Source: an uncultured Clostridia bacterium (lineage in GTDB: Bacteria; Bacillota; Clostridia; TANB77; CAG-508). Taken from it: DNA of 64,000 bases. The notes beneath the pieces are model-generated. The model did not search any database and was not told the origin of the DNA. It worked only from the letters and a program-made list of their open reading frames with translations. The stretch's first letter is position 1. Each line of letters starts with the position of its first letter. The stretch is from assembly GCA_944388035.1 (NCBI GenBank), contig CALXHF010000004.1:22168-86167 (forward strand), given 5' to 3'. This document shows, piece after piece, positions 63,305-63,472 of the stretch. A program made the position numbers and the translations under genes.

Positions 63305-63472
63305 ATGTTTTCGTTGTCTAAGCAAGAGCTTTCTATGCTCGAAAAGAAGCTTGATTCTTTTGACTCTAGTCAAAAAAAGCTAACGGTTCCAATCTATGAG
63401 ATTGGTTGTCCAAACTGCAATGGACAATGCAAAAACGGCTGTGGTGTAACGTGCGTTTCTGTTTTTAGTTAG
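63305..63472 (+). CDS. Cys-rich 55-aa candidate RiPP precursor peptide
   Basis: Not in the supplied ORF track (below its size cutoff). ATG 63305, 6 nt after AAGGAGG. Translation: MFSLSKQELSMLEKKLDSFDSSQKKLTVPIYEIGCPNCNGQCKNGCGVTCVSVFS, then TAG. Followed by a strong terminator. Confidence 0.65.
   Translation: MFSLSKQELSMLEKKLDSFDSSQKKLTVPIYEIGCPNCNGQCKNGCGVTCVSVFS

Follow-up and report, generated by a model that had tools for sequence, protein, structure and literature searches.

A two-gene cassette of an apparently RRE-less radical-SAM/SPASM enzyme and a five-cysteine peptide, probably a RiPP precursor, in an uncultured Clostridia bacterium

Introduction

What does a 55-codon reading frame encode that lies directly behind the gene of a radical-SAM/SPASM enzyme, and is its product a substrate of that enzyme? 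The question is raised by a locus near the end of a 64-kb stretch of DNA from an uncultured Clostridia bacterium, the whole of which is called the window below. SCIFF, freyrasin and the CXXX-repeat peptides belong to the cysteine-rich peptides that radical-SAM enzymes modify, a group abundant in anaerobes, with a chemistry known for few of its members and a biology known for almost none. An earlier note on this DNA, made from the sequence, had pointed to the frame, to its leader-like N-terminal half and to five cysteines spaced as in SCIFF peptides, and had suggested that it may represent a distinct family.

The pair described here is a minimal cassette, made up of a 368-aa enzyme predicted to lack an RRE and a 55-aa peptide with a conserved core of 22 residues, and offers a convenient model both for the activity of CXXX-repeat maturases and for the reading of a leader by a SPASM enzyme without an RRE. 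The features discussed are collected in Table 1, where homologous loci carry L numbers.

Table 1. Features of the cassette, its neighbours and its genomic contexts (window positions, unless another locus is named)
Feature	Position or loci	Strand	Remarks
Neighbouring ORFs of 194 and 136 aa	58997-60068	-	match Glyco_hydro_3 positions 2-172 and 215-315
Terminator of preceding RqcH/NFACT gene	61898-61921		cassette promoter lies downstream
Cassette promoter, sigma-70-type	62024-62052	+	TTGACA-17-TATAAT, 12/12; 5' of enzyme gene
Putative maturase, 368-aa radical-SAM/SPASM, predicted without RRE	62103-63209	+	NCBIfam matches, CteB alignment, AF2 model
Mini-ORF (MLYP and stop)	63241-63255	+	ATG CTA TAT CCA TAA
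Ribosome-binding site of peptide gene	63294-63300	+	AAGGAGG, 4 nt 5' of ATG
Peptide ORF	63305-63472	+	55 aa and stop; translation MFSLSKQELSMLEKKLDSFDSSQKKLTVPIYEIGCPNCNGQCKNGCGVTCVSVFS
Leader region, residues 1-33	63305-63403	+	motif M-F-x-L-S-x3-[LM]-x2-L-x3-L kept, remainder variable (alignment of homologues)
Core region, residues 34-55 (GCPNCNGQCKNGCGVTCVSVFS), and stop	63404-63472	+	residues 34-51 invariant among known homologues
Intrinsic terminator	63479-63513	+	13-bp stem, 7 G-C pairs, 4-nt loop, T-run
161/165-aa protein	about 63521-64000	-	cut by window end
161/165-aa protein, L003	5420-5905	-
161/165-aa protein, L001	5662-6159	+
Context 1	window, L003		RqcH ... convergent 161-aa membrane protein
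Context 2	L001, L002, L012-14		AddA-small ORF ... 165-aa membrane protein-MreB
Context 3	L015-17		divergent LysR ... TspO

The peptide gene is real and under selection

The translation quoted in the earlier note was recovered exactly from the forward strand, and its five cysteines (residues 35, 38, 42, 46 and 50) lie, as claimed, in the last 21 residues with the spacing x2, x3, x3, x3. After four repeat intervals the peptide ends in a hydrophobic tail, VSVFS. The motif C..C...C...C has a single match in the six-frame translation of the 64-kb window, which is this peptide, and no second Cys-rich small ORF or canonical SCIFF was found within the window. The amphipathic character ascribed to the leader held only in part. 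The hydrophobic moment of the window peptide (0.33 against a shuffle mean of 0.23) was reached by 20% of shuffles and is suggestive, not significant, whereas amphipathicity is distinct in the leaders of the relatives L021 and L042 (p<0.01, shuffles).

A search of 5.8 billion proteins yielded eight homologous peptides of 53-56 aa. Their last 22 residues read GCPNCNGQCKNGCGVTCV[SA][IV][FL]S, and their leaders have only M1, F2, L4, S5, L12 and L16 in common, the leader diverging freely around an invariant core. The frame was found 3' of a homologous enzyme gene in every related locus examined (L001-L003 and L012-L017), which bears out both the conservation and the co-occurrence on which the earlier note had let its reading depend. 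Six distinct DNA versions (window, L001, L003, L012, L015 and L016), drawn from three genomic contexts, were compared. Their core DNA shows 1-14 differences per 54 nucleotides; all 18 codons of GCPNCNGQCKNGCGVTCV vary synonymously and none non-synonymously, and only 21% of the possible single-base changes in these codons are silent. A ribosome-binding site of the AAGGAGG type is kept 5' of the ORF in all six versions. The intrinsic terminator, located between the peptide gene and a convergent downstream gene, is conserved in L003, and analogous hairpins occur 3' of the ORF in most other versions.

A frame of just 55 codons that belongs to no Pfam or NCBIfam family (the sole match of the window peptide, 10.7 bits to KIS, is meaningless) might be put down to a chance opening in the 3' UTR of the enzyme gene. 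The probability of this is negligible, since it is effectively refuted by the six DNA versions, in which every one of the 18 core codons changes synonymously only, and the conserved ribosome-binding site, the independent calling of the gene in public assemblies and the profile homology with a large peptide superfamily speak against it as well. With synonymous-only variation of the core, a conserved ribosome-binding site and, in most versions, a hairpin behind the ORF, chance is ruled out and the ORF is a real coding gene under selection.

The peptide clade is largely unnamed. As the earlier note remarked, this ORF falls below the length cut-off of the ORF list that it used, and the whole clade is missed by such cut-offs and by present curated models. 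A profile of the eight close peptides retrieved only its own cluster from 1.84 billion representatives at E<=1e-3, with no link to SCIFF or to other peptides.

The cassette and its genomic contexts

Enzyme and peptide are predicted to form a self-contained two-gene transcription unit (promoter, enzyme, peptide, terminator), because the promoter comes after the terminator of the RqcH/NFACT gene and a further terminator follows the peptide gene. The promoter region is 94% identical in L003. A peptide with the exact core stands behind a homologous enzyme (62-95% identity) in three differing neighbourhoods (contexts 1-3 in Table 1), across which the enzyme-peptide pair alone is conserved. The pairing is obligate. 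No peptidase or protease, ABC exporter or other transporter, or immunity gene accompanies the pair in the loci compared.

The G+C content of the cassette is 31-37% (positions 62050-63550), against 17-28% in the flanking genes. This contrast and the three genomic contexts are compatible with horizontal acquisition, although they do not prove it. Plasmid and phage collections contained only distant matches to the enzyme, with 25-40% identity.

Enzyme and peptide gene are separated by a spacer of 95 nt, which holds a mini-ORF encoding MLYP, with a strong ribosome-binding site of its own (TAGGAGGTG). It is identical in L003, and the spacer of L001, L002 and L012 is about 25 nt long and has no mini-ORF. 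The mini-ORF may serve translational coupling or regulation, or may have no meaning.

Adjoining the cassette in two arrangements is a protein of 161 or 165 aa that has hydrophobic N- and C-terminal segments (two TM) and no Pfam family. Identity between the two versions is 27% (E 1e-10). The window and L003 have the gene in convergent orientation, L001 and L002 have it co-directional, and the LysR/TspO context lacks it. This gene was considered as an accessory gene and set aside, being adjacent in two contexts and not in the third, and probably belongs to the chromosome backbone near addA. Further upstream in the window, the two adjacent frames that match successive parts of Glyco_hydro_3 read as one NagZ-like gene interrupted by a frameshift or stop, which makes it a pseudogene unless the assembly is in error.

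The radical-SAM/SPASM enzyme

The enzyme carries a CX3CX2C motif for the SAM cluster (C22/C26/C29) and seven C-terminal cysteines, the general features of a radical-SAM/SPASM maturase. Its cluster cysteines align with the AC1 and AC2 ligands of CteB as given in PMC10177961; by this alignment C243, C261 and C303 correspond to AC1 and C291, C294, C300 and C322 to AC2. Across 18 homologues each of the ten is either invariant or conserved to at least 90%.

The best NCBIfam match is PapB (NF047865; 141.3 bits, cut-off 340), followed by the CXXX-repeat maturase TIGR04115 (125.5 bits, cut-off 350) and, in rank order, by CcpM, the nif11-type maturase, QhpD and the SCIFF maturase (TIGR03974; 80.8 bits, cut-off 425). 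Every curated match is below its cut-off, and the best ones are maturases of Cys-containing peptides. Homologues are numerous (633 at E<=1e-20) and come almost all from gut or rumen-type metagenomes; most are unnamed, and a few bear generic names such as 'radical SAM protein' or 'uncharacterized protein'.

The closest PDB entry in both sequence and fold is CteB (5WGG/5WHY), residues 12-326 of the query corresponding to CteB 97-439 with a TM score of 0.70. The next fold matches of the AF2 model (pLDDT 87.9) are anSME, TigE and ChlB, and the ChlB-leader complex 9GM3 is among them. The model opens directly with the barrel strand 11-19 and contains no N-terminal wHTH domain, and alignments with longer maturases start at profile positions 80-115. 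Because the alignments start inside the maturase profiles and the model begins at the first barrel strand, the enzyme is taken to have no N-terminal RRE domain. Nor was a separate RRE found: L001 and L002 have variable small ORFs 5' of the enzyme, none with a PqqD-like match, and the window, L003 and L016 have no such ORFs. Neither an RRE nor any other module for leader binding was found. ChlB, crystallised with the leader of its precursor (9GM3), shows that a leader can be bound without an RRE, and a candidate docking site is offered by two C-terminal helices (residues 319-366) that the CteB alignment does not reach.

The wider family of CXXX-repeat peptides

Small Cys-rich peptides accompany related enzymes well beyond the eight close homologues. 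At 65 of 80 metagenomic loci with enzymes of 28-53% identity, a small ORF carrying three or more Cys close to its C-terminus was found on the same strand within 700 bp of the enzyme gene, upstream or downstream. Peptides of a large subgroup start with MF[EQK][LVI][TS] and end in C-x2-C-(x3-C)n; in one example, MFELTKDLLDKIGRAI...SCAACTGTCKNGCQGTCKGSCKGGCTRTCKGNSR, the segment CKNGC is common to the window peptide. A sister clade represented by L007, where the enzyme is 53% identical, has the peptide MLKLSKDQ...GCNSCNGGCQSSCGGCSGGCGTGNTCAVTLDIFT, which shares with the window peptide the start GC-x2-CNG-x-C and a hydrophobic tail, ending in F-T (F-S in the window).

Peptides with the MFxL leader lie beside enzymes of 40-50% identity in gut metagenomes. 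In an hhalign comparison the window family matched twelve of them with 96.6% probability (E 5.4e-10), leader and core both being covered and the five Cys being the only invariant core columns. Within the repeats of the broader superfamily, too, only Cys is conserved. Relatives beside enzymes of 45-47% identity scored 19.2-24.1 bits with TIGR04114, whose cut-off of 20 was passed only by the L021 peptide (24.1), and a more distant CXXX-repeat peptide with another leader, at L075, scored 30 bits. Relatives also match TIGR04117 and TIGR04118 weakly, and the window peptide itself matched none of the three models. Remote homology places it on a short, unnamed branch of the Cys-rich radical-SAM targets predicted as the CXXX-repeat class.

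A profile of the combined set retrieved 119 related peptides, none named except for one 'hypothetical protein' label. Some CXXX-repeat peptides (P0143, P0151, P0166, P0223 and others) carry the precomputed Pfam label PF27846.1. No characterised member was found in the literature searched for the core sequence, for the CXXX-repeat class and its models, and in recent papers on ranthipeptides.

Other peptide types were seen beside more distant enzymes. Enzymes of about 40% identity are followed by a conserved peptide of 47-49 aa, MNFKL...NSCGCSGDCGSNWMQS, sometimes duplicated (L028, L029, L031, L033, L034, L041, L062 and L079); a copy lies at 3062-3205 of L099 (OY725981.1), an entry described as a plasmid of Phocaeicola massiliensis. 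Behind enzymes of 32-36% identity (L061, L065, L066, L068, L071, L072, L077 and L092) there are peptides with two or three repeats of the C-x-C-x3-CGSNYS type, often preceded by a protein of about 100 aa with a zinc-ribbon-like end (CPxCG...CPxCG); these look like another unnamed RiPP type. A peptide with three Cys and a C-terminal Trp, ...F[SV][EYS][FY]SC[SK]C[TS]...[KQ]SC[GV]W[DH], is encoded 5' of enzymes of 36-43% identity (L044, L045, L051, L053 and L095).

Proposed function and alternatives

A short gene adjoining the enzyme gene, an organisation into leader and core, and co-conservation of the pair are the features observed here that mark RiPP precursors. The peptide is therefore probably a RiPP precursor that forms an operon with the upstream enzyme, for which we propose thioether chemistry. 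The enzyme presumably acts on the peptide; if so, the chance that it makes thioethers, judged by analogy, is slightly better than even, and because of the homology with CteB, Tte1186 and PapB a multiply thioether-bridged product would be the most likely one.

In PapB and Tte1186 the substrate Cys/Sec binds AC1 (PMC10177961). In the mechanism proposed here, the leader motif MFxLSxxE[LM]xxLxxxL would be recognised by the enzyme without an RRE, in a binding mode that is a guess, and thiolates of the core Cys would bind auxiliary cluster 1 at its open iron. The 5'-deoxyadenosyl radical would then abstract hydrogen from core residues, and GCPNCNGQCKNGCGVTCVSVFS would become a compact polycyclic peptide through as many as five intramolecular thioether cross-links from Cys to carbon. 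Candidate acceptors are N37, N39, N44, T49, the glycines or backbone C-alpha positions; the proposed number and positions of the links, like the biological role, are inferred.

The enzyme might instead carry out some other Cys-centred or backbone radical reaction on the same precursor, such as conversion of Cys to formylglycine as in anSME, formation of thio-oxazole-type heterocycles, epimerisation or C-C links. The superfamily repeats conserve only Cys and present no apparent fixed acceptor side chain, anSME, likewise RRE-less and of about 370 aa, is the second-best structural match, and the scores for all thioether-forming families are far under their cut-offs. We nevertheless regard this alternative as unlikely: the best match in sequence and structure is the thioether synthase CteB, the top curated matches are thioether or Cys-peptide maturases, and a cyclophane, which needs aromatic residues, is improbable with F54 as the only one in the core.

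That the peptide is not modified at all is less probable still. Five invariant Cys within 16 residues could bind metal or an Fe-S cluster, in a protein of the metallothionein or mini-ferredoxin kind that is merely co-transcribed with the enzyme or serves it as an accessory or chaperone, and the lack of an associated protease or exporter means that there is no sign of leader removal or secretion. A metal-binding protein is nonetheless very improbable, given that dozens of diverse Cys-repeat peptides beside homologous enzymes have the same layout of leader and core, that the nearest relatives of the enzyme are peptide maturases, and that a drifting leader joined to an invariant core is typical of precursors. 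The Cys spacing is also not known from ferredoxin motifs.

If the peptide is a modified precursor, as we prefer, a conserved physiological role of the SCIFF kind (as a signal, or as a metal or redox ligand) may be proposed in preference to that of an arms-race bacteriocin, since an unchanging core goes with enzymes of as little as 62% identity, the leader drifts, and the pair lacks companion genes for a protease, an exporter or immunity. For SCIFF, too, a conserved physiological target has been argued. A bolder and more doubtful extension is that the more than 600 homologues, mostly from gut anaerobes, form an unnamed clade of RRE-independent SPASM maturases with an undescribed cross-link chemistry or topology, the invariant five-Cys version serving, in the manner of SCIFF, as a housekeeping signal or a metal or redox ligand and not as an antibiotic. 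Novel links, from Cys to Asn, Gly, Val or the backbone, come into consideration because the core offers neither a carboxylate nor a conserved Thr as acceptor. No concept is overturned by the cassette, which to a RiPP specialist is a system of an expected kind.

Comparison with known systems

Freyrasin is made from PapA by PapB, the best curated match of the window enzyme, and has several thioethers, placed in a Cys motif that is repeated. The acceptor for PapB must be a carboxylate (CX3D or E) (PMC9413430; PMC8172795), and PapB-type Cys-Asp links are excluded because the core GCPNCNGQCKNGCGVTCVSVFS has neither Asp nor Glu. PapB has an N-terminal extension (RRE), its first cluster Cys being C119, whereas that of the window enzyme is C22.

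Two further enzymes, anSME (4K36-39) and ChlB (9GM3), resemble the window enzyme in their length of about 370 aa, in having no N-terminal RRE and in fold, although sequence similarity is confined to the radical-SAM core. They differ in chemistry, anSME oxidising a Cys or Ser of sulfatases and ChlB forming cyclophanes on aromatic residues. An NxxC motif, in which beta-thioether peptides of the NxxcA/NxxcB type have Asn as acceptor and Cys as donor, occurs once in the window peptide (N39-G-Q-C42), and the NxxcB family is not among the best 25 enzyme matches listed.

The CXXX-repeat systems of Haft (peptides TIGR04114, TIGR04117 and TIGR04118, maturase TIGR04115) likewise have a C-terminal Cys at every fourth residue, but the window enzyme stays below the cut-off of TIGR04115. 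The TIGR04115 protein of Anaerococcus prevotii pAPRE01 is 31% identical to the window enzyme and, with 728 aa, has an extra C-terminal region. Its system comprises an upstream C-x3-C-x3-C-x3-C peptide and an ABC transporter, unlike the window cassette.

SCIFF cassettes such as CteA-CteB (thermocellin) and Tte1186a-Tte1186 share with the window the two-gene form, the occurrence in Clostridia and the absence of a protease or transporter, and SCIFF peptides also have a highly conserved core. The spacing of their first five Cys, as given in the earlier note, proved correct and is identical to that of the window peptide. A SCIFF sequence, used as a positive control, scored 89.1 bits with TIGR03973, ungapped over all 43 positions, and its numbering agrees with the published Cys21, Cys32, Thr34 and Thr37. 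In hhalign it was aligned with the window peptide in register at G-C-x2-C-x3-C-x3-C-x3-C (71-85%, E about 1e-5), an alignment limited to the Cys block.

The differences are nevertheless clear, and the suggestion of a distinct family fits them. The sixth Cys of SCIFF is absent, the leader begins MFxLS... and not MKHIKTLN..., and the peptide gave no match to TIGR03973 (cut-off 50 bits) even at E<=10; its nearest relatives are the CXXX-repeat peptides. The acceptors Thr34 and Thr37 of CteA correspond to Val48 and Val51. The enzyme falls well short of the SCIFF maturase cut-off, its alignment with TIGR03974 starting at profile position 97, and appears to lack the N-terminal RRE of about 95 residues with which CteB binds the CteA leader. 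Judged by sequence, the window peptide is SCIFF-like and not a member of SCIFF. What is new here is an unnamed two-gene variant, seemingly without an RRE, of the class of Cys-rich peptides modified by radical-SAM enzymes, whose closest characterised analogues are the ranthipeptides.
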